IMG/VR virus record: IMGVR_UViG_2648501392_000001
Span: 1 to 6,675 of that record
Origin: a virus
Taxonomy: Duplodnaviria > Heunggongvirae > Uroviricota > Caudoviricetes
Reading direction: 5' to 3' (one strand)
Length of the DNA stretch: 6,675 bases
Shown: positions 1 through 6,675 of the stretch, in pieces
Layout of the letters: each line of letters begins with the position of its first letter
Numbering within the stretch: the first letter of the stretch is position 1
Made by a program: the position numbers and the translations under genes
Notes under the pieces: model-generated
What the model was told of the DNA's origin: nothing
Databases searched by the model: none
Seen by the model: the letters and a program-made list of their open reading frames with translations, nothing else

Positions 1-110
1 CCTTTAAATGCCGTCTGGCGAAGAGTGGTGATCAGTTCCTGTGGGTCGACAGAATCCATGCCGACACGTTCAGCCAGCTTCCCTGCCAGCGTTGCGAGTG
101 CTGTACTCAT
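1..110 (-). CDS. bet: Bet (Red-beta) single-strand annealing recombinase, N-terminal part only; the gene runs off the left edge
   Basis: Minus-strand translation from ATG at 110..108 gives MSTALATLAGKLAERVGMDSVDPQELITTLRQTAFK, which matches the N-terminus of lambda Bet as I recall it. It begins 5 nt after the gam stop, as in lambda. Confidence 0.9.
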   Translation of the reverse strand, partial: MSTALATLAGKLAERVGMDSVDPQELITTLRQTAFK

Positions 111-115
111 CCGTT

Positions 116-532
116 TTATACCTCTGAATCAATATCAACCTGATGGTGAGCAATGGTTTCAACCATGTACCGGATGTGTTCTGCCATGCGCTCCTGAAAC
201 TCAACATCGTCATCAAACGCACGGATAATGGCTTTTTTGCTGGCCCCGTGGCGTTGCAAATGATCGATGCATAGCGATTCAAACAGGTGCTGGGGCAGGC
301 CTTTTTCCATGTCGTCTGCCAGTTCTGCCTCTTTCTCTTCACGGGCGATCTGCTGGTAGTGACGCGCCCAGCTCTGAGCCTCAAGACGATCCTGAATGTA
401 ATAAGCGTTCATGGCTGAACTCCTGAAATAGCTGTGAAAATATCGCCCGCGAAATGCCGGGCTGATTAGGAAAACAGGAAAGGGGGTTAGTGAATGCTTT
501 TGCTTGATCTCAGTTTCAGCATTAATATCCAT
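116..532 (-). CDS. gam: Gam, host RecBCD inhibitor. Long form is 138 aa (116..532); the short GamS form (98 aa) would start at ATG 412..410
   Basis: ORF-track protein [32 protein letters not shown]...[10 protein letters not shown] is near-identical to lambda Gam from memory. The internal ATG at 412 has a strong SD (AGGAG, 7-nt spacer), whereas the long-form ATG at 532 has no SD, so the short form is probably the main product. Confidence 0.9.
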
Positions 533-630
533 TTTTTATAAGCGTCGACGGCTTCACGAAACATCTTTTCATCGCCAATAAAAGTGGCGATAGTGAATTT
601 AGTCTGGATAGCCATAAGTGTTTTATCCAT
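487..630 (-). CDS. kil: Kil, host cell-division (FtsZ) inhibitor, 47 aa
   Basis: ATG at 630..628 gives [47 protein letters not shown], matching lambda Kil from memory (a few substitutions). It overlaps the long-form gam N-terminus as in lambda. SD GGAG lies about 9 nt upstream. Confidence 0.8.
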
Positions 631-763
631 TTTTGGGAACTCCTGGCTGATTAAGTACGTCGATGAGTCGTTTCCATCCGTCACGTAATTTACGTGTGAT
701 TCGCTCAAGTAAAGATTCGGAAGGGCAGCCAGCAACAGGCCACCCTGCAATGGCATATTGCAT
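623..763 (-). CDS. cIII: cIII, inhibitor of FtsH-mediated CII degradation; 46 aa here, apparently C-terminally truncated relative to lambda cIII
   Basis: ATG at 763..761 gives [46 protein letters not shown] followed by TAA at 625..623. This matches lambda cIII residues 1-46 from memory. SD GGAG (complement of 771-774) is 7 nt upstream. Confidence 0.75.
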   Translation of the reverse strand: MQYAIAGWPVAGCPSESLLERITRKLRDGWKRLIDVLNQPGVPKNG

Positions 764-834
764 GGTGTGCTCCTTATTTATACATAACGAAAACGCCTCG
801 AGTGAAGCGTTATTGGTATGCGGTAACGCCGCGC

Positions 835-1203
835 TCAGGCGGCTTTGATAGTCATATCATCTGAATCAAATATTCCTGATGTATCGATATCGGTAATTCT
901 TATTCCTTCGCTACCATCCATTGGAGGCCATCCTTCCTGACCATTTCCATCATTCCAGTCGAACTCACACACAACACCATATGCATTTAAGTCGCTTGAA
1001 ATTGCTATAAGCAGAGCATGTTGCGCCAGCATGATTAATACAGCATTTAATACAGAGCCGTGTTTATTGAGTCGGTATTCAGAGTCTGACCAGAAATTAT
1101 TAATCTGGTGAAGTTTTTCCTCTGTCATTACGTCATGGTCGATTTCAATTTCTATTGATGCTTTCCAGTCGTAATCAATGATGTATTTTTTGATGTTTGA
1201 CAT
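835..1203 (-). CDS. ea10: Ea10-like protein, 122 aa, in the position lambda ea10 occupies between cIII and the ral/sieB region
   Basis: ORF of 369 nt on the pL-operon strand, same length and position as lambda ea10. SD GAGGA lies upstream of ATG 1203. Identity is assigned from synteny and size; I cannot verify the sequence from memory. Confidence 0.6.
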   Translation of the reverse strand: MSNIKKYIIDYDWKASIEIEIDHDVMTEEKLHQINNFWSDSEYRLNKHGSVLNAVLIMLAQHALLIAISSDLNAYGVVCEFDWNDGNGQEGWPPMDGSEGIRITDIDTSGIFDSDDMTIKAA

Positions 1204-1353
1204 CTATTCATATCCTCACAGATAAAAAATCGCTCTCACATTGGAGGGCAAAGAAGATTTCCAATAATCAGAACAAGTCGGCTCCTGTTTAGTTACGAGC
1301 GACATTGCTCCGTGTATTCACTCGTTGGAATGAATACACAGTGCTTATTCGTA

Positions 1354-1824
1354 CTAATAAAATACCCAATTTTCTGTTTCTTGGTTGTGTCCAAAGTTAT
1401 ATTCAATATCTGGTGTTGATGTATCAATATTCTTCATCCCATCAACAAGAGTTGATACAACAGCCAAATCTTGTTTTATTCTCATTAAATGGTATTTCTT
1501 CCGGCGCAATAAACTTTCAATAGCAAGTTTCTTCGTTGGGAATGCAAAAGATCTTTCTGCATTTTTTGCTACTTTCTTAATTGCATATCTATTTCTCCTT
1601 TGTTTCCATTCCTGTAACCACTGATTTGGTGCTGGTTTAAAATTAACAATCCAATGCGCAGGAACCAACCATGCATAATGCTCTGTCTGATGAAAAGCTA
1701 TATATTGAAGTGCGAATATTTTTATCCCATCTTCTTCAACTGTCGCCTGGAATCTCCAGAAAACAGGCATTCCATCATGTTCAGTTTCTAATTCAGGAAA
1801 AGGTACGCTCCATGATTTTGTCAT
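1354..1824 (-). CDS. Hypothetical protein, 156 aa, in the position where lambda carries ral and sieB; non-lambda cargo gene
   Basis: ATG at 1824..1822 is preceded by SD GAGGTGA. It is co-oriented with the pL operon between N and ea10. It has a basic central stretch (WKQRRNRYAIKKVAKNAERSFAFPTKKLAIESLLRRKKYHLMRIKQ) and no obvious transmembrane segment. I do not recognise the family. Confidence 0.6.
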   Translation of the reverse strand: MTKSWSVPFPELETEHDGMPVFWRFQATVEEDGIKIFALQYIAFHQTEHYAWLVPAHWIVNFKPAPNQWLQEWKQRRNRYAIKKVAKNAERSFAFPTKKLAIESLLRRKKYHLMRIKQDLAVVSTLVDGMKNIDTSTPDIEYNFGHNQETENWVFY

Positions 1825-1882
1825 ATCTCACCTCAAATAAGTGGTTTGCTGCCTAATTTCATTTTCTGGCGACCAACACAAG

Positions 1883-2266
1883 TCACCTCGCCGTCAGTTG
1901 TTTGGATTTCCGGTAGCCTGCCGCGTAAATGGCTACGTTTGGAAGACATACACCAGTTTCTGGTTGCTTATGTCCAAACTCATTCGCGTACACAATGGCC
2001 GCTCGCTCCAGATTGCGTCTGTATTCTTTCTGTTGCCAGATCACGTCTTGTGCCATGAACTTAATTGGCTTAGCGTCTTCTATACGCTCAGGCGTTTCGT
2101 GAGTACCTTTAGCCTGAATCTGCGCTCTGCTTAGAGTAGGGCGGTGTAATACTTCTGAACTTATTGCTTCTTCGCGGGCCAGTACGCCATTAGCTAATGC
2201 CTTTACCTTTAAACGCTCACGACGACGAGAACGTGAATTGCCTTTGAACTGAGTTCTGCGTGTCAT
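1883..2266 (-). CDS. N: N-type transcription antitermination protein, 127 aa, P22 gp24-like
   Basis: It is the first gene downstream of pL/nutL. ATG 2266..2264 has a strong SD (AGGAGG, 5-nt spacer). The N-terminal arginine-rich motif GNSRSRRRERLKVKALA resembles the P22 N motif GNAKTRRHERRRKLAIER, and the C-terminus VAIYAAGYRKSKQLTAR resembles P22 gp24 VALYAAGHRKSKQITAR (both from memory). Confidence 0.85.
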   Translation of the reverse strand: MTRRTQFKGNSRSRRRERLKVKALANGVLAREEAISSEVLHRPTLSRAQIQAKGTHETPERIEDAKPIKFMAQDVIWQQKEYRRNLERAAIVYANEFGHKQPETGVCLPNVAIYAAGYRKSKQLTAR

Positions 2267-2279
2267 ATAGACCTCCTGA

Positions 2280-2420
2280 TGAACTTTGGTGGTGTGGTAG
2301 GTGGGAGACCCATTTCGACCTGTTTCGGCCTACTTCAATTCGGCAATAGTCCCGCAGGCTTCGCCGCTTTACGTGCGACATATTCCCGTCCATGAACCCT
2401 TCACCACACCCCAAAGTTCA
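2280..2420 (-). promoter_or_regulatory. Long-range inverted repeat in the N leader, a candidate RNase III-type processing or translation-control stem
   Basis: 2280-2298 (TGAACTTTGGTGGTGTGGT) is the reverse complement of 2403-2420 (ACCACACCCCAAAGTTCA) apart from one bulged base. The 3' arm ends directly next to the N SD at 2271-2276. Confidence 0.5.
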
Positions 2421-2431
2421 CTTTGGTTATT

Positions 2432-2446
2432 GCGCTTTGTCAGCGC
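2432..2446 (-). promoter_or_regulatory. nutL boxB hairpin (P22-type, GACAA loop)
   Basis: Minus-strand RNA reads GCGCUGACAAAGCGC: a 5-bp stem with GACAA pentaloop, matching the P22 boxB I recall. It lies between pL and N. CTACG sits immediately 5' of it, as at nutR. Confidence 0.75.
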
Positions 2447-2506
2447 CGTAGATTCATATTCGAATCGTTGTATATTCACCGCCCTGGTGAGTAGTGCGTC
2501 CTGCTG

Positions 2507-2600
2507 ATGGCTTAAAGATAACCTAGGTTATAGTGGTGGTCAATAACTTAATTTATGGATTCTGATAAATAAGTTATATGTGATGGATAATAAAGGTATT
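2507..2600 (-). promoter_or_regulatory. OL operators and pL promoter (leftward)
   Basis: Operator-like palindromes at 2518-2531 (ATAACCTAGGTTAT, perfect), 2543-2556 (ATAACTTAATTTAT), 2566-2578 (ATAAATAAGTTAT) and 2587-2600 (ATAATAAAGGTATT), the same family as the sites between cI and cro. Candidate pL on the minus strand: -35 TTGACC (complement of 2538-2543), 17-nt spacer, -10 TATCTT (complement of about 2515-2520). Confidence 0.6.
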
Positions 2601-2717
2601 TTATTTTTGTAAATGTTGCGGATTGGTCGGTATTGGAAGGGGGGCGCTGTATTGCTGTCGTGTTGGTTCGTGGTTTACCGCATTTGCGGCTGTTAAATAT
2701 GGGGGACGATCGCGAGG

Positions 2718-2746
2718 CAAAGAAAACCCGGCGCGGAAGCCGGGTT
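2718..2746 (-). terminator. Rho-independent terminator (minus strand) downstream of the 44-aa ORF
   Basis: Minus-strand RNA AACCCGGC-UUCCGC-GCCGGGUU followed by UUCUUUG: an 8-bp GC-rich stem with a U-rich tail, 16 nt after the ORF stop. Confidence 0.65.
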
Positions 2747-2762
2747 TGAGATTTAGTTATTT

Positions 2763-2897
2763 TCAGCAGCTCGGATAAGAGCGGAAGTGCTGACGAACAT
2801 GTTCGAGCTCACCGAAACGTATGCGGCAGTAACTGCGCACATAAACCGGCTTGTCGTGTTCGTAGATGAAGTCATCGCGATTAACATCGTGAGCCAT
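2763..2897 (-). CDS. Small hypothetical protein, 44 aa (MAHDVNRDDFIYEHDKPVYVRSYCRIRFGELEHVRQHFRSYPSC)
   Basis: ATG at 2897..2895 is preceded by SD AGGAGA with a 7-nt spacer; stop TGA at 2765..2763 is followed by an intrinsic terminator. This frame is not in the supplied ORF track (too short). It contains several His and Cys residues. Confidence 0.55.
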   Translation of the reverse strand: MAHDVNRDDFIYEHDKPVYVRSYCRIRFGELEHVRQHFRSYPSC

Positions 2898-3045
2898 AGC
2901 TTTTCTCCTGTTTTTGTATACAGCCTGTTTACCCGAACAGGTTGTAGTTTGTTGGGAGAACCGCTATCCTTGGCTTGCGGTTGCCAAGGGTGTAGCGGTA
3001 GGTAATCCTCCATACACTTCGGAAATACTGGATATATTTCCGACC

Positions 3046-3080
3046 CAAAAAGCCCCGTTCCCTCGGGGCTTTATTCTTTT
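3046..3080. terminator. Bidirectional rho-independent terminator, the tIMM-equivalent ending the cI operon
   Basis: GCCCCG(3052-3057)-TTCCCT-CGGGGC(3064-3069). On the minus strand it is followed by UUUUU (complement of A-run 3047-3051), immediately after the 177-aa ORF stop at 3071-3073. On the plus strand it is followed by TTTATTCTTTT (3070-3080). Confidence 0.75.
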
Positions 3081-3604
3081 GTTCCGCCATCAATCATCGC
3101 AAAAGATTCCACAATCAGACTGATACGCTTGGCTTCATCTTTTGTCAGGTCGCGAGGCAGGTTGCCAATGGTGACGATAAGATCTCCGCGCAATGGAATC
3201 GGCAGTTCAAATGTTTTTACACCAACCTGTACGTCAGCTACCGCCTTCTTCTTAGGTGCCATCTTTTTACGCTCCTTTTTTTTATTTACATCACCAACTG
3301 ACACATTAATCTCACCATTCTGGTAGGAGATAAATTTATCAATAGCACTTTGCATTCGGCTTTTGTATGCCTGCAAAGATGATTCAGAAGGTTTGCTTTC
3401 TGCTGAGTCTGCGTACGAACTTGCTAAGTTGGCAACGCTATAATCACGGATATCGGCATCGGTGAAATCCGACCCAAGAACAGTAAGAAGGCGCAGGGAA
3501 GAGTCACGGAGATTGCGGGCTGTAGCATCATTGACGATACCAAGCTCAGGAAGCATCTGTAAGAAGTCCTGAAATGCTTTGATGGTGTAGCTTTTGGTTT
3601 GCAT
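3071..3604 (-). CDS. Hypothetical protein, 177 aa, distal gene of the cI-linked cassette (rexB-equivalent position); two-domain layout with a lysine-rich linker
   Basis: ATG 3604..3602 with SD GAGG and a 7-nt spacer; the stop abuts the terminator. The protein has a central KKKERKKMAPKKK linker separating an N-terminal domain of about 105 aa from a C-terminal domain of about 55 aa. No obvious transmembrane segment. Family not recognised. Confidence 0.7.
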   Translation of the reverse strand: MQTKSYTIKAFQDFLQMLPELGIVNDATARNLRDSSLRLLTVLGSDFTDADIRDYSVANLASSYADSAESKPSESSLQAYKSRMQSAIDKFISYQNGEINVSVGDVNKKKERKKMAPKKKAVADVQVGVKTFELPIPLRGDLIVTIGNLPRDLTKDEAKRISLIVESFAMIDGGTKE

Positions 3605-3793
3605 AAAAAAGCCTCATACAGTTGATGAGGCAATACTAATTTGATCGTCAAAACAAATCAAGACCCAAGAAACGATCGTTGATTCCTTTCTTTGTGACAA
3701 TACAGTCAAATCAAGTTTTACAAGGATTACTTTTCTTCGATTACATTAAAGGCCGCACTTCTGCGACCATCCATCACCAAAATGTCTCTTCAC

Positions 3794-4135
3794 TCATCCG
3801 AAGAAGCAGCAATCCGGGTCAGCACGCACAAGCTCAAGCGCATCAGTCAGCGAAAGTTCAGTACTGTACTGATGCCATTTCATATCCTTCCGCATCCAAT
3901 AGATTTTCCATCTATCCAGAGAACGTATGTACTTGATTCTTGCTGATGGCAGGATGTTTGTTTCACCTGGGTTGCCCTGCCACACGGGGCGCTGTTCGCC
4001 GATATCTATCGTTTGGTCATTGATGCTATAAACAATATCCAGTTCATTGCGGATATGTTCAGGCGGCCTTATGCTTTCAATGAATTGGTGAACTTCTTTT
4101 TTGACCGCTTGATATTCAAGGTCAGTGAACGCCAT
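3794..4135 (-). CDS. Hypothetical protein, 113 aa, proximal gene of the cI-linked cassette (rexA-equivalent position)
   Basis: ATG 4135..4133 with strong SD GAGGAGG and a 4-nt spacer, only 37 nt downstream of the cI stop on the same strand, so it is probably co-transcribed from pRM. Family not recognised. Confidence 0.7.
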   Translation of the reverse strand: MAFTDLEYQAVKKEVHQFIESIRPPEHIRNELDIVYSINDQTIDIGEQRPVWQGNPGETNILPSARIKYIRSLDRWKIYWMRKDMKWHQYSTELSLTDALELVRADPDCCFFG

Positions 4136-4172
4136 CTATCCTCCTCACCCAAACGTTTCTTCAGGCCACTGG

Positions 4173-4880
4173 TTACCAGCTATGCGATGACCAGAATACT
4201 CTGCCAATAATCCTTACGGTTTTATGAAATTCATCTCTATCCATTACTTCATCCGGGTACTCTTCGCGATTTATTGATCTGATTATCACCGATGTAGGAG
4301 TGGCGATTAATGTTTTTACTCGCAACAAATCAGACTGGCAAATAGCGTAGGTTTTACCATCTCTGATGGTGGTATCTTGTGTGTTAACACCAACAACATC
4401 GCCATCGTGAAGAGTTGGTTCCATGCTTTGACCTGTTACCCTTACCAGCTTGGCAGAACTTTCAGTTACCCCCATCTTTTTCAGATAGTACTTTCTGAAA
4501 ACCAAAGAGAACTCTGATGATTCTTCTATCTCGCAGCTACCGCTTCCAGCCGAAAGCGAAACGTTAAGAAGAGGCAATGCGACAAACTCGTCATCGTTTT
4601 TTTTAATGTCTTCCCATACCACAGCTTTTAAAGATGACTCACGGATATTGGATGGTTCTTCATGTGTACCATCCCTCATTTCACCAATACCAGAACTAAG
4701 CCATTCAGGGCGTACTTTTAAAGCATTAGCTAACTCAACCATCTTGCGAGATCCGTTTGTTTTACCGGATGACATCTTCTGTATGGCTGGCTGAGATATT
4801 CCAACCATGTCCGCAAGCTGTGATTGCGACACCCCTGCCGATCTCATGGCTGCATTTAGTCTTTCTGCGAATGTTTTCAT
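4173..4880 (-). CDS. cI: CI-type prophage repressor, 235 aa: N-terminal HTH plus C-terminal S24 (LexA-like) autopeptidase domain
   Basis: Translation contains an HTH region (QSQLADMVGISQPAIQKM), an Ala-Gly cleavage site (SLSAGSG), the serine motif GQSMEP and a downstream Lys (LLRVK). It is divergent from cro across an operator-rich region. I chose ATG at 4880 with no SD (leaderless, as for lambda pRM transcripts) over the in-frame TTG at 4910. Confidence 0.9.
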   Translation of the reverse strand: MKTFAERLNAAMRSAGVSQSQLADMVGISQPAIQKMSSGKTNGSRKMVELANALKVRPEWLSSGIGEMRDGTHEEPSNIRESSLKAVVWEDIKKNDDEFVALPLLNVSLSAGSGSCEIEESSEFSLVFRKYYLKKMGVTESSAKLVRVTGQSMEPTLHDGDVVGVNTQDTTIRDGKTYAICQSDLLRVKTLIATPTSVIIRSINREEYPDEVMDRDEFHKTVRIIGRVFWSSHSW

Positions 4881-4991
4881 ATCCACAAATCTATAACTAC
4901 GGTTATCCAAAGTAAAATAATAAAGGTTATTGCTATCTTTTATAACTTGGGTTATCCTTGGTTATAAGTAATGGCTGAAAGAGGTATGCTC
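4881..4991. promoter_or_regulatory. OR operators with divergent pRM (leftward) and pR (rightward) promoters
   Basis: Three 14-bp palindromes of the ATAAC-N4-GTTAT family at 4893-4906 (ATAACTACGGTTAT), 4916-4929 (ATAATAAAGGTTAT) and 4942-4955 (ATAACTTGGGTTAT), spaced 23 and 26 bp, plus an extra GGTTAT half-site at 4960-4965. Candidate pRM on the minus strand: -10 TAGATT (4888-4893), start at the cI AUG, -35 TTTACT (4911-4916). Candidate pR -10 TATAAG at 4964-4969; the pR -35 is ambiguous. Confidence 0.65.
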
Positions 4992-5216
4992 ATGAATTTA
5001 GTAATTCACCGAGCCTTGAAGATTGTCGGTAGTCAAAAGCGGCTTGCCGACAAGTGTGGTGTAACGCAGCCAGCAGTACACAAATGGCTGAAAGGCGGGC
5101 AGGTTTCTCCAGAGAAAGTTACCGCCATCGTTAACGCCACTGGAGGGCAGATCAAGGCTTACGAAATTCGCCCAGATTTACCACACCTGTTTCCAAAACC
5201 GAATCAGGCAGCATAA
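4992..5216 (+). CDS. cro: Cro-type HTH repressor, 74 aa
   Basis: It is divergent from cI and first on the rightward operon. ATG 4992 is preceded by SD AAGAGG with a 7-nt spacer. HTH-like segment QKRLADKCGVTQPAVHKWLKG. The sequence is unlike lambda Cro, so this is a different immunity type. Confidence 0.8.
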   Translation: MNLVIHRALKIVGSQKRLADKCGVTQPAVHKWLKGGQVSPEKVTAIVNATGGQIKAYEIRPDLPHLFPKPNQAA

Positions 5217-5254
5217 GTAACACCGCTATTTTCACAATGGACATTCGTCCTACG

Positions 5255-5269
5255 TCGCTGACAAAGCGA
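5255..5269 (+). promoter_or_regulatory. nutR boxB hairpin (P22-type, GACAA loop)
   Basis: TCGCTGACAAAGCGA between cro and cII, with the same loop and CTACG 5' flank as nutL. A candidate boxA-like CGCTATTTT lies at 5224-5232 but is weak and uncertain. Confidence 0.7.
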
Positions 5270-5342
5270 GCCCCAAGATATCTGACCAACTAAGGCCATA
5301 TGTGTTTCCACGCATACCTTTCAACTAACTATTCACTATTGG

Positions 5343-5377
5343 AAATATTAAGAAATGACACAAACAAGTTACAGCAA
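5343..5377 (-). promoter_or_regulatory. pRE-like CII-activated promoter (leftward), overlapping the cII start
   Basis: Minus strand reads TTGCTGTAACTTGT (complement of 5364-5377; a TTGC-N6-TTGT CII box), then 12 nt, then TTAATAT, then TTCC. This has the same architecture as lambda pRE (TTGC-N6-TTGC, 12 nt, TAAGTAT, TTCC) from memory. Confidence 0.55.
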
Positions 5378-5651
5378 ACTATCCCAGCGCGACGTTGATC
5401 GCGCAGAAACGGATTTACTCATCAACCTGTCAACGCTTACCCAGCGCGGTCTGGCAAAGATGATTGGCTGTCATGAATCGAAGATAAGCAGAACGGACTG
5501 GAGATTTATTGCTTCGGTCCTGTGTGCTTTCGGAATGGCATCAGACATCAGTCCGATTAGCAGGGCTTTTAAGTATGCGCTTGATGGAATCACCAATAAA
5601 AAACGCCCGGCGGCAACCGAGCGTTCTGAACAAATCCAGATGGAATTCTGA
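5355..5651 (+). CDS. cII: CII-type transcriptional activator, 98 aa, chimeric: non-lambda N-terminal region with the lambda C-terminal 19 aa
   Basis: The C-terminus TNKKRPAATERSEQIQMEF is identical to the lambda cII C-terminus from memory; the first 79 or so residues differ. Position between nutR and O matches. Confidence 0.85.
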   Translation: MTQTSYSKLSQRDVDRAETDLLINLSTLTQRGLAKMIGCHESKISRTDWRFIASVLCAFGMASDISPISRAFKYALDGITNKKRPAATERSEQIQMEF

Positions 5652-5673
5652 GGGAATTACTGGATCAATCCAC
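5597..5673 (-). ncRNA. oop: oop antisense RNA (about 77 nt), with its tO terminator at 5597-5623
   Basis: The minus strand across 5597-5680 reads ...GACTCCTGTGGATTGATCCAGTAATTCCCTCAGAATTCCATCTGGATTTGTTCAGAACGCTCGGTTGCCGCCGGGCGTTTTTTATTGGTGA, near-identical to the lambda tO/oop region I recall (hairpin GCCGCCGGGCG plus U6). It is antisense to the 3' end of cII. Exact ends are estimated by analogy with lambda. Confidence 0.7.
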
Positions 5674-5682
5674 AGGAGTCAT

Positions 5683-5711
5683 TATGACAAATACAGCAAA
5701 AATACTCAACT
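5683..5711 (-). promoter_or_regulatory. pO promoter driving oop
   Basis: Minus strand: -35 TTGAGT (complement of 5706-5711), 17-nt spacer, -10 CATAAT (complement of 5683-5688), placing the start near 5675. Confidence 0.55.
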
Positions 5712-6622
5712 TCGGCAGAGGTAACTTTGCCGAACAGGAGCGTAATGTGGCAGATCTCGATGATGGTTACGCCAGACTATCAAATATGCTGATTGAGGCT
5801 TATTCAGGCGCAGATCTGACCAAGCGACAGTTTAAAGTGCTGCTTGCCATTCTGCGTAAAACCTATGGGTGGAATAAACCAATGGACAGAATCACCGATT
5901 CTCAACTTAGCGAGATTACAAAGTTACCTGTCAAACGGTGCAATGAAGCCAAGTTAGAACTCGTCAGAATGAATATTATCAAGCAGCAAGGCGGCATGTT
6001 TGGACCAAATAAAAACATCTCAGAATGGTGCATCCCTCAAAACGAGGGAAGTTCCCCTAAAATGAGGGACATCCCTCAAAACGAGGGAAAATCCCCTAAA
6101 ACGAGGGATAAAACATCCCTCAAATTAGGGGATTGCTATCCCTCAAAACAGGGGGACACAAAAGACACTATTACAAAAGAAAAAAGAAAAGATTATTCGT
6201 CCGAGAATTCTGGCGAATCCTCTGACCAGCCAGAAAACGATCTTTCTGTGGTTAAACCGGATGCTGCAATTCAGAGCGGCAGCAAGTGGGGAACAGCAGA
6301 AGACCTGACCGCCGCAGAGTGGATGTTTGACATGGTGAAGACCATCGCACCATCAGCCAGAAAACCGAATTTTGCAGGGTGGGCTAACGATATCCGCCTG
6401 ATGCGTGAACGTGACGGACGTAACCACCGCGACATGTGCGTGCTGTTCCGCTGGGCATGCCAGGACAACTTCTGGTCCGGTAACGTGCTAAGTCCGGCCA
6501 AACTCCGCGACAAGTGGACCCAACTCGAAATCAACCGTAACAAGCAACAGGCTGGCGTGACAGCTGGAAAACCAAAACTCGACCTGACAAACACTGACTG
6601 GATTTACGGGGTGGATTTATGA
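5684..6622 (+). CDS. O: Replication initiator O, 312 aa, with the origin iterons inside its coding sequence
   Basis: ORF-track protein MTNTAKILNFGRGNFAEQERNVADLDDGYARLSNM...TDWIYGVDL is near-identical to lambda O from memory. SD AGGAG is 5 nt upstream of ATG 5684. The stop overlaps the P start (ATGA). Confidence 0.95.
   Translation: MTNTAKILNFGRGNFAEQERNVADLDDGYARLSNMLIEAYSGADLTKRQFKVLLAILRKTYGWNKPMDRITDSQLSEITKLPVKRCNEAKLELVRMNIIKQQGGMFGPNKNISEWCIPQNEGSSPKMRDIPQNEGKSPKTRDKTSLKLGDCYPSKQGDTKDTITKEKRKDYSSENSGESSDQPENDLSVVKPDAAIQSGSKWGTAEDLTAAEWMFDMVKTIAPSARKPNFAGWANDIRLMRERDGRNHRDMCVLFRWACQDNFWSGNVLSPAKLRDKWTQLEINRNKQQAGVTAGKPKLDLTNTDWIYGVDL
6032..6200. repeat. Replication origin: six O-binding iterons (6032-6156) followed by an A-rich tract (6157-6200)
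   Basis: Iterons TCCCTCAAAACGAGGGA-like at 6032-6049, 6052-6069, 6071-6088, 6091-6108, 6115-6132 and 6138-6156, each an internal inverted repeat, spaced 19-24 bp. Then cacaaaagacactattacaaaagaaaaaagaaaagattattcg. Confidence 0.85.
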
Positions 6623-6675
6623 AAAACATCGCCGCACAGATGGTTAACTTTGACCGTGAGCAGATGCGTCGGATC
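6619..6675 (+). CDS. P: Replication protein P (DnaB helicase loader), N-terminal part only; the gene runs off the right edge
   Basis: Translation MKNIAAQMVNFDREQMRRI matches the lambda P N-terminus from memory; start overlaps the O stop. Confidence 0.9.
   Translation, partial: MKNIAAQMVNFDREQMRRI

Follow-up and report, generated by a model that had tools for sequence, protein, structure and literature searches.

A portable prophage cassette joins a small basic-protein gene to a conserved partner gene and a predicted antisense RNA

Between cI and OL/pL in the immunity region of a lambdoid Escherichia coli prophage lies a 44-amino-acid (aa) open reading frame (ORF), which we analyzed in a stretch of 6,675 nucleotides (nt) from IMG/VR record IMGVR_UViG_2648501392_000001 (positions 1 to 6,675, hereafter the window). 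We found that this small ORF is the distal gene of a conserved, portable cassette, a result in which we have high confidence. On the minus strand, the cassette runs from its own promoter through a 177-aa partner gene, a terminator, a conserved spacer/leader of ~175 nt and the small ORF to a final terminator, and it is inserted between the cI operon and OL/pL. We favor the interpretation, at a probability of roughly 60%, that this mobile three-part cassette encodes an antisense-controlled small protein resembling those of type I toxin-antitoxin systems. From sequence comparison, we infer that a small RNA (sRNA) would be produced from the strand opposite the small ORF, that it would repress the ORF, and that the small protein would be harmful.

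The small ORF is almost certainly a real gene. An earlier note on this DNA, made from the sequence alone, had described a textbook Shine-Dalgarno (SD) sequence for it, and this is present, with AGGAG placed 6 nt 5' of the ATG. The comparison of synonymous and non-synonymous changes that the note had proposed gave a clear coding signature: against relatives gathered by protein and contig searches, the ratio of non-synonymous to synonymous substitution rates (dN/dS) was 0.05–0.11, with no frameshifts. Variable codon positions 1, 2 and 3 in the family numbered 16, 14 and 42, so that 42 of the 44 third positions vary, and among distant members the synonymous sites have reached saturation with the protein preserved. 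The frame was open in all 14 family-1 variants compared, and overlapping frames pick up stops among the relatives. The ORF is already annotated by the Prokaryotic Genome Annotation Pipeline (WP_000929756.1, hypothetical protein) and matches the PHROG 21154 profile (E = 1.9e-31, residues 1–44 against profile positions 1–47). Distant relatives of 34–49 aa retain a V.V..Y.R.R.G..E.VR.H.RS.P core, and V18, V20, Y23, R25, E32, V34, H37 and R39 are invariant in the family.

The encoded protein, MAHDVNRDDFIYEHDKPVYVRSYCRIRFGELEHVRQHFRSYPSC, is charged and basic, without a hydrophobic stretch, and AlphaFold2 modeled it as an Arg-rich beta-hairpin whose two strands span residues 19–38 (predicted local distance difference test score, pLDDT, >90). 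A fold search with this model gave no meaningful match, a PDB sequence search returned nothing significant, and searches of Pfam, NCBIfam and PADLOC found no known type I toxin family; the homology test covered Hok, Ldr, Ibs, TisB, ShoB, ZorO, DinQ, SymE and RalR as well as Rfam sRNAs. The cassette does not belong to any known type I family by homology or by the hydrophobicity of its candidate toxin. A small regulator or toxin, one of the roles suggested earlier, stays the best guess for the product.

Portability of the cassette is evident from its distribution. In Klebsiella prophages of an unrelated type, which carry a DUF927 primase and a single-stranded DNA-binding protein, a 93%-identical small ORF always follows a 175-aa gene across a spacer of ~170 nt, and the cI and DUF3024 genes are not nearby. 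The pairing is kept in Raoultella/Klebsiella with a partner only 43% identical, and it recurs in Symbiopectobacterium, Leminorella, and metagenomic and viral contigs. Partner, spacer and small ORF thus occur together in E. coli lambdoid prophages, in Klebsiella/Raoultella prophages with DUF927 or D5 primases, in Enterobacter satellite-like elements and in the Shiga toxin 2 (Stx2) phage Sp5, a spread over otherwise unrelated phages and satellites of Enterobacterales; the scan of genome contigs for the cassette yielded 3 loci only. The earlier suggestion that the ORF is a third component of an adjacent cassette holds in part, since the ORF is tied to the 177-aa gene but the DUF3024 gene does not travel with them: it is a separate item, unlinked to the cassette in other hosts.

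The partner protein begins with a four-helix domain that has the fold of a tyrosine-recombinase core-binding domain, continues with a Lys-rich linker and ends in a C-terminal domain of ~45 aa that hardly varies. It resembles the core-binding (SAM-like) domains of recombinases and integrase-like repressors (3nrw, lambda Int 2oxo, MrpR 8a0a), and it differs from them in having no catalytic domain: its 177 aa gave no Phage_integrase Pfam match and do not contain the catalytic domain with the RHR-Y active site, and its conserved 45-aa C-terminal domain is unique to it and unrelated to that domain. Similarity to lambda Int at the sequence level falls short of significance (E = 0.87). A promoter of the form TTGATT-17-TAnnAT stands ahead of the partner gene in the E. 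coli, Klebsiella, Symbiopectobacterium and Yersinia loci, and just 5' of it most loci carry GATC palindromes (CGATCG; GATCTT...AAGATC) that may be a Dam/SeqA site or an operator. The Lys-rich linker contains an A8 run at 3276–3283 (T8 on the plus strand), and three viral contigs (L029–L031) have one A fewer in this run, which shifts the partner frame and leaves the small ORF intact; the loss could be a homopolymer sequencing error or slippage-prone phase variation.

Behind this one architecture, the small-ORF slot is filled by members of three or more unrelated families. In Enterobacter satellite-like elements, a homologous spacer precedes a 44-aa protein of another kind, a Cys-rich zinc ribbon (MANGICPKCGNACEV...CNC; family 2), and a third branch, which includes Yersinia lambdoid prophages, carries a 57-aa protein (MALKDIATKPLPAGFRWVKCRFRK...). 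Comparison of the three families by hhalign detected no relation, and we rejected homology among them on this basis. One locus (L108:2491–3156) has two leader and small-ORF units in tandem behind a single partner, first a family-1 ORF of 45 aa and then a family-2 zinc-ribbon ORF of 51 aa, and both units have a structured spacer of their own. In a Symbiopectobacterium locus (L047:3026–3241), the P3 hairpin of the leader holds an insertion that duplicates the initial ~28 nt of the small ORF.

The spacer between the two genes contains a conserved promoter-like element on the strand opposite the small ORF. A position-weight-matrix scan of both spacer strands identified an antisense sigma-70 promoter at the same aligned position in every variant and no conserved sense promoter inside the spacer. 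The pattern TTGNNN-N16–18-TANNNT is found on the antisense strand at -70 +/- 4 nt from the small ORF ATG in 26 of 26 distinct variants, whereas the sense strand has it, at any position, in no more than 1 of the 26. Columns of the spacer alignment that never vary make up the terminator stem, the SD and ATG, the CC of an anti-SD sequence, and the promoter TTG and TA...T positions, the last corresponding exactly to alignment columns A104, T108, A109, C130, A131 and A132. A candidate promoter for the small ORF within the C-terminal coding region of the partner (CTGACA-17-TATCAG) was rejected: third codon positions vary freely there.

Across the family, the terminator at the partner stop codon is built for the antisense strand. 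The 8-nt tail contains on average 6.6 U in the antisense direction versus 3.5 in the sense direction, with antisense exceeding sense in 29 of 30 variants, and the sense strand carries an A-tract ahead of the terminator, in non-coding contexts as well, so that only the antisense strand gains a proper U-tail. This terminator, placed at 3046–3069 by the earlier note and assigned to the cI operon, instead serves the 177-aa gene and, on the other strand, the predicted antisense transcript. The picture of hairpins in a simple leader boxed by two terminators likewise gave way, as the opposite-strand promoter is the most conserved element and the terminator is oriented with it; by this polarity the 3019–3043 hairpin and half of the 2960–2999 palindrome would lie inside the predicted sRNA. 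A transcript from promoter to terminator would comprise a CCUCC-containing 5' portion, the 3019–3043 stem-loop, and the terminator with tail UUUAUUCUUUU; for this putative 104-nt RNA, folding gave three stem-loops (z = -3.3). Rfam searches gave no spacer match in the window or in six related loci. Taken from promoter and terminator sequence conservation, a previously undescribed antisense sRNA gene in the spacer is likely.

The sense leader is strongly structured. Compared with shuffled sequences, fold z-scores were -6.85 for 2715–3075 and -5.98 for the leader at 2880–3045, and the two strong upstream hairpins described earlier, at 3019–3043 (H1) and 2961–2999, both proved real, together with an unlisted third at 2919–2946 (H3). 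When the segment between H1 and H3 was folded alone, the same three-tier hairpin (P1, P2 and a variable P3) formed in 23 of 23 spacer variants, with stem sequences, notably that of P3, differing among them. We aligned 32 spacers with a covariance model built on this three-tier structure and searched for the compensatory changes that the note had thought worth seeking: double-sided changes occurred in 25 of the 48 pairs of the leader model, and compensatory cells numbered 132 versus 49.6 in shuffles (0 of 500 reached 132; slid controls were far lower), in an alignment whose helices were fitted to the model and which favors structure. Compensatory changes affect 8 of 9 pairs in H1 and 5 of 9 in H3. 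P2 shows 25 G.U versus 3 A.C cells, indicating selection on the sense RNA, a strand assignment that applies to P2 only.

An alternative helix outside the covariance model pairs the SD with the anti-SD. It is paired in 71% of cells versus 61% in shuffles, and its covariation score is 0.209 versus 0.073 (0 of 500 shuffles reached it; slid controls gave 0.05–0.13). The SD and a second SD-like sequence further upstream, S1, change together: they read GGAGA and GGAGG, respectively, in the window type, and UACAGGUUAA is repeated in the Klebsiella type. In the lowest-energy fold of the window leader, the SD is paired with the anti-SD. The structured, translation-limiting leader that characterizes type I systems is thus represented here by a predicted SD:anti-SD pairing with covariation.

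These elements suggest how expression of the small protein may be controlled. The plus-strand promoter in the leader would direct synthesis of an sRNA of ~100 nt ending at the terminator beside the stop codon of the 177-aa gene. The sense leader could adopt either of two mutually exclusive folds, the three-tier hairpin, in which the GGAGG of S1 holds the anti-SD UUCUCC, or a second fold, in which the anti-SD pairs with the real SD. The 5' half of the hairpin, with S1, is fully complementary to the predicted sRNA, whose binding should therefore free the anti-SD and shut off translation; additionally or instead, the duplex of sRNA and leader might be a substrate for RNase III. Alternatives to refolding would be RNase III cleavage, occlusion of the SD-like standby site and transcriptional interference. 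We simulated sRNA binding by masking the complementary half of the hairpin, and the mean probability of anti-SD:SD pairing rose from 0.37 to 0.79, with an increase in 19 of 30 variants. For the window type, this probability was already about 1.0 without masking; here the SD is expected to be inaccessible whether or not the sRNA binds. On the strength of this modeling, repression through leader refolding or cleavage is a tentative proposal, which we rate at a little under even odds. Direct pairing of the sRNA with the SD was rejected as a general mechanism, being significant in only a few variants. The 177-aa protein would be the third component, possibly an antidote or a repressor.

A distant variant of the cassette is present in the Stx2 phage Sp5 (VT2-Sakai), where a 38.6%-identical partner (orf22/ORF23, ECs1184) lies between cI and N. 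We identified an unannotated family-1 ORF of 40 aa, MSTYNLNDQFDREVHVNAYERIRHGNLEHVCEHYRSRPHR, 173 nt downstream of this partner, with about 53% identity to the 44-aa ORF over 30 residues, and an antisense promoter, TTGAAA-17-TAAGGT at -66, that is the best of that region. The Sp5 version of the cassette occurs in 234 of 5,426 E. coli genomes. In a survey of RNA crosslinked to Hfq (crosslinking and analysis of cDNA, CRAC), Tree et al. 2014 (PMC4104026, Table S2) listed an orphan Hfq peak, EcOnc20, at 1255628–1255753 on the minus strand of NC_002695.1. After mapping of these coordinates with a genome-version offset of about +134 to +142, which we derived via AsxR, EcOnc20 covers about -35 to +90 of the Sp5 40-aa ORF on the sense strand. 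It has been catalogued as a non-coding sRNA without known target (PMC4104026, PMC7873438); most likely it is the mRNA of the Sp5 counterpart of the small ORF.

The Sp5 partner gene has itself been the subject of genetic and biochemical work. Mondal et al. 2016 (PMC5155283) could not obtain an in-frame deletion of ORF23/ECs1184; they concluded that its loss 'appears to be lethal' and that stable lysogeny requires the gene, which is at most an indirect hint that the small protein is toxic. Among early Sp5 genes, the one further case that resisted deletion is ECs1180 (Sp5 ORF21; NC_002695.2 1254720–1254971) (PMC5155283), which is among the top Hfq-bound coding sequences (Tree et al. 2014, PMC4104026, Table S1A). 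In a 2025 study (PMC7618764), ECs1184 fell just short of significance in RNA-interactome capture, and its polynucleotide kinase (PNK) signal was no stronger than that of green fluorescent protein; this published assay disfavors the idea, which we had considered, that the partner C-domain is a leader RNA-binding domain. In VT2-Sakai, a 53-aa GeneMark ORF on the opposite strand (L120:3133–3294; VT2-Sap22) overlaps the conserved 40-aa family-1 ORF; it was probably annotated in error, and neither of the two is annotated in RefSeq NC_002695.2.

Several observations count against antisense control of a harmful small protein. The Hfq-CRAC orphan list (PMC4104026) contains the sense peak only and no plus-strand peak, and since ECs1184 is not a strong RNA binder (PMC7618764), a link between the partner protein and the RNA is unlikely. 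The promoter copy in the window matches only 7 of 12 consensus bases, the reason a simple scan omitted it, and, as no sense promoter was found in the spacer, the small ORF depends on read-through of a terminator that has 5 sense-strand U's in the window. Masking had no consistent effect on coarse accessibility over -14 to +3 (0.40 vs 0.39), direct sRNA-SD pairing was significant in only a few variants, and the helix alignment favors structure, as stated above. The small protein is not the hydrophobic membrane peptide of classical type I toxins, and three loci have a frameshifted partner beside an intact small ORF, which is awkward for a strict antidote role unless the shifts are homopolymer sequencing errors.

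One rival explanation is a plain two-gene operon, in which the hairpins would be an attenuator plus stabilizing or occluding structures and the antisense promoter a by-product of the stems, with no sRNA made. Only a sense-strand Hfq-bound RNA is recorded for the Sp5 homologue, the window promoter match is weak (7/12), and the SD:anti-SD helix alone could give low, structure-limited expression. A by-product of the stems is nevertheless hard to reconcile with six canonical promoter positions (TTG, TA...T) that are invariant at an exact 17-nt spacing while the surrounding paired bases vary, or with the A-tract that precedes the terminator in non-coding contexts too and gives a proper U-tail to the antisense strand only; we judge the plain operon unlikely. 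Somewhat less probable still is that the palindromes at 3019–3043 and 2961–2999 are DNA operators for the 177-aa protein with its core-binding-like DNA-binding fold. By binding DNA, this protein would repress either the antisense promoter or the small ORF itself in a type-II-like toxin-antidote pair, an arrangement that would also be compatible with antisense control. Partners with unrelated N-domains (43% identity overall) adjoin identical spacers, so operator and DNA-binding domain do not co-vary; the bias in P2 toward G.U over A.C (25:3) is explained by RNA pairing only; and the palindromes lie downstream of the predicted promoters rather than over them, save for an overlap with the -10 box.

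The two remaining explanations concern the product itself. A His/Cys-rich metal-binding peptide, as the earlier note had inferred from H3, H14, C24, H33, H37 and C44, would fit the 4 His and 2 Cys of the window protein, the Cys4-5 zinc ribbon that occupies the same slot in another small-ORF family, and the best PDB match of the family profile, a non-significant one to the ADR1 C2H2 finger (E = 0.14). Only H37 among these residues is conserved, however: C24 is replaced by Y, T, E, L, A or F, H33 by N, Y, F or L and C44 by R, S or N, and H3 and H14 are lost. The metal site is therefore unsupported, no Pfam metal-binding domain is matched, and we consider this explanation very improbable. Scarcely credible is the idea that the locus makes a sense non-coding sRNA only, with a fortuitous ORF: EcOnc20 is indeed catalogued as an orphan Hfq-bound sRNA, but the strong in-frame purifying selection, the saturated synonymous sites of distant members, the conserved SD and ATG and the frame kept open in every family-1 variant compared all speak against it. 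Antisense control of a small protein thus remains our favored interpretation, and that this protein acts as a toxin or in addiction is possible rather than probable.

In the E. coli type I systems tisB/istR-1 and zorO/orzO, the small-protein gene has a long structured leader with an occluded SD, and a short sRNA from the opposite strand, encoded beside or within the leader, pairs far upstream of the start codon, so that repression is indirect, through a standby site, refolding or RNase III. The cassette shares with them a structured leader predicted to occlude the SD and would share a short opposite-strand sRNA, and a role for Hfq or another RNA chaperone is plausible. It differs in that the protein is a basic, soluble-looking beta-hairpin rather than a hydrophobic membrane peptide, the predicted sRNA is cis-encoded inside the leader, a protein-coding partner is always attached, and there is no sequence similarity. 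The ralR/ralA pair of the Rac prophage comprises a small non-membrane toxin with zinc-ribbon-like Cys motifs and an antisense sRNA antitoxin. Like it, the cassette is prophage-borne and encodes a non-membrane small protein, and one family in its slot is a zinc ribbon; unlike here, RalA overlaps the coding region and there is no partner protein, and homology is not detectable. In the immI region of phage P22, the antisense RNA sar arises from a promoter in the downstream unit, runs across the intercistronic region of arc-ant and limits the distal gene. The predicted antisense RNA of the cassette would similarly be short and run back toward an upstream regulator gene, but sar covers the ant ribosome-binding site, whereas the predicted sRNA ends at least 80 nt upstream of the SD, and the genes are unrelated. 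EcOnc20, by comparison, belongs to a distant variant of the cassette, where it maps in sense orientation to the beginning of the related ORF. Overall, the cassette departs from type I systems in its soluble basic effector, its interchangeable effector families and its obligatory core-binding-like partner. The Pas sRNAs (bioRxiv 2026), which we also considered, are unrelated late-region sRNAs.

A broader and rather unlikely possibility is that these loci represent a three-component system of a new kind, serving addiction or exclusion in temperate phages of enterobacteria. A core-binding-like protein and a cis-antisense sRNA would act in it together with a small toxin that binds nucleic acid and can be exchanged (an Arg-rich beta-hairpin, a zinc ribbon or a member of the third family). 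If so, it would combine type I with type II toxin-antitoxin logic, use toxins of a non-membrane type, and account for the non-deletability of ORF23/ECs1184 in the lysogen; the cassette occurs in about 4% of complete E. coli genomes, the Stx2 prophage Sp5 of O157:H7 Sakai being one of its carriers. A portable cassette with a swapped effector slot, at the lysogeny-expressed 'moron' site beside cI, is a pattern typical of toxin-antitoxin and defense systems, and should the small proteins act as toxins or in exclusion, phages of medical relevance would have a new class of type-I-like toxins that are soluble. Our analysis offers a testable reason for the published puzzle of an early Stx2 prophage Sp5 gene that cannot be deleted, recasts the orphan sRNA EcOnc20 as the probable mRNA of an unannotated small protein, and adds a candidate sRNA and a putative leader switch, both absent from Rfam.

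Table 1. Coordinates of the cassette, its predicted RNA elements and neighboring features (window positions unless an accession is given)
Feature	Position	Strand	Remarks
44-aa small-protein gene	2763–2897	minus	family 1, PHROG 21154; ATG start
Shine-Dalgarno sequence AGGAGA	2904–2909	minus	AGGAG at 2905–2909, 6 nt ahead of ATG
Terminator after small ORF	2724–2747	minus	CCCGGC/GCCGGG arms 2727–2732/2739–2744; U-tract 2717–2726
Partner gene, 177 aa	3071–3604	minus	PHROG 2602
Cassette promoter	3633–3661	minus	-35 TTGATT 3656–3661, -10 TAGTAT 3633–3638
Predicted sigma-70 antisense promoter	2942–2970	plus	TTGTAG 2942–2947, 17-nt spacer, TATCCT 2965–2970
Predicted cis-antisense sRNA, ~100 nt	about 2977–3078	plus	start near G2977; candidate from promoter and terminator
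Terminator at 177-aa gene stop codon	3049–3072	both strands in window	
H1 hairpin	3019–3043		9-bp arms; would occur in sense leader and antisense sRNA
S1, SD-like GGAGG	3007–3011	minus	pairs with anti-SD as P1; within sRNA-complementary region
P2	ACCGCUA 2993–2999 / UAGCGGU 2960–2966	minus	encloses P3; 3' arm holds antisense -10 box
P3	CCUUGGC 2983–2989 / GCCAAGG 2968–2974	minus	nested in P2
Anti-SD UUCUCC	2955–2960	minus	pairs with S1 (P1) or with SD; CC invariant
H3 hairpin	2919–2946	minus	between anti-SD and SD; 5' arm overlaps antisense -35 box
GATC palindromes	3670–3690		equivalent positions in loci L003, L047, L035, L094
cI	4173–4910	minus	
DUF3024 gene	3794–4135	minus	between cI and cassette
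OL/pL	about 2515–2600		
N	1883–2266	minus	
Sp5 40-aa ORF	NC_002695.2 1255735–1255857	minus	

The terminator that the earlier note had assigned to the small ORF (2725–2746) is borne out: the hairpin folds, the U-tract is on the minus strand, and the run directly after the hairpin is UUUUCUUU. A consensus scan missed it because the AAA/UUU extension of the stem consumes the U-run. Positions 2702–2746 are 91% identical to lambda 35782–35826, at the end of rexB in the tImm region, and related terminators close the cassette in Klebsiella and Yersinia loci, so that it looks like a shared module-boundary sequence. No gene homology to the lambda rexAB/tImm region between cI and pL was found, the match being limited to this terminator of ~45 nt; the cassette is thus, as had been proposed, an extra transcription unit without lambda counterpart, in which the genes differ and only the terminator after the ORF matches.

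Positions 2600–3075 are 100% identical to E. coli O39:NM F8704-2, and the exact window version is carried by only 6 of 5,426 complete E. coli genomes, plus phage SH2026Stx1. Upstream of the cassette, the cI/DUF3024 transcript more likely stops at 3611–3631 than at 3046–3069. A hairpin followed by U6 stands immediately ahead of the ATG of the 177-aa gene (3611–3661, minus strand) and resembles a terminator of that transcript; the start from the cassette promoter would fall within the 5' arm of the 3611–3631 hairpin, and the SD of the 177-aa gene (GAGG) is in its 3' arm. The DUF3024 gene matches the PADLOC candidate single-gene defense system PDC-S43 (E = 7e-42).

Elsewhere in the window, a 156-aa ORF at 1354–1824 (minus strand; PHROG 1636, function unknown) lies between N and a DUF2528 gene, and the otherwise identical F8704-2 prophage has an Nmad5-family gene in its place. 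The replication-origin iterons within the O gene (6027–6153, ATCCCTCAAAACGAGGGA repeats) gave rise to a spurious sub-threshold SNORA74 match. The lambda cIII thermoregulator element, Rfam RF01804, is matched over its full length at 718–776 on the minus strand (88.5 bits).

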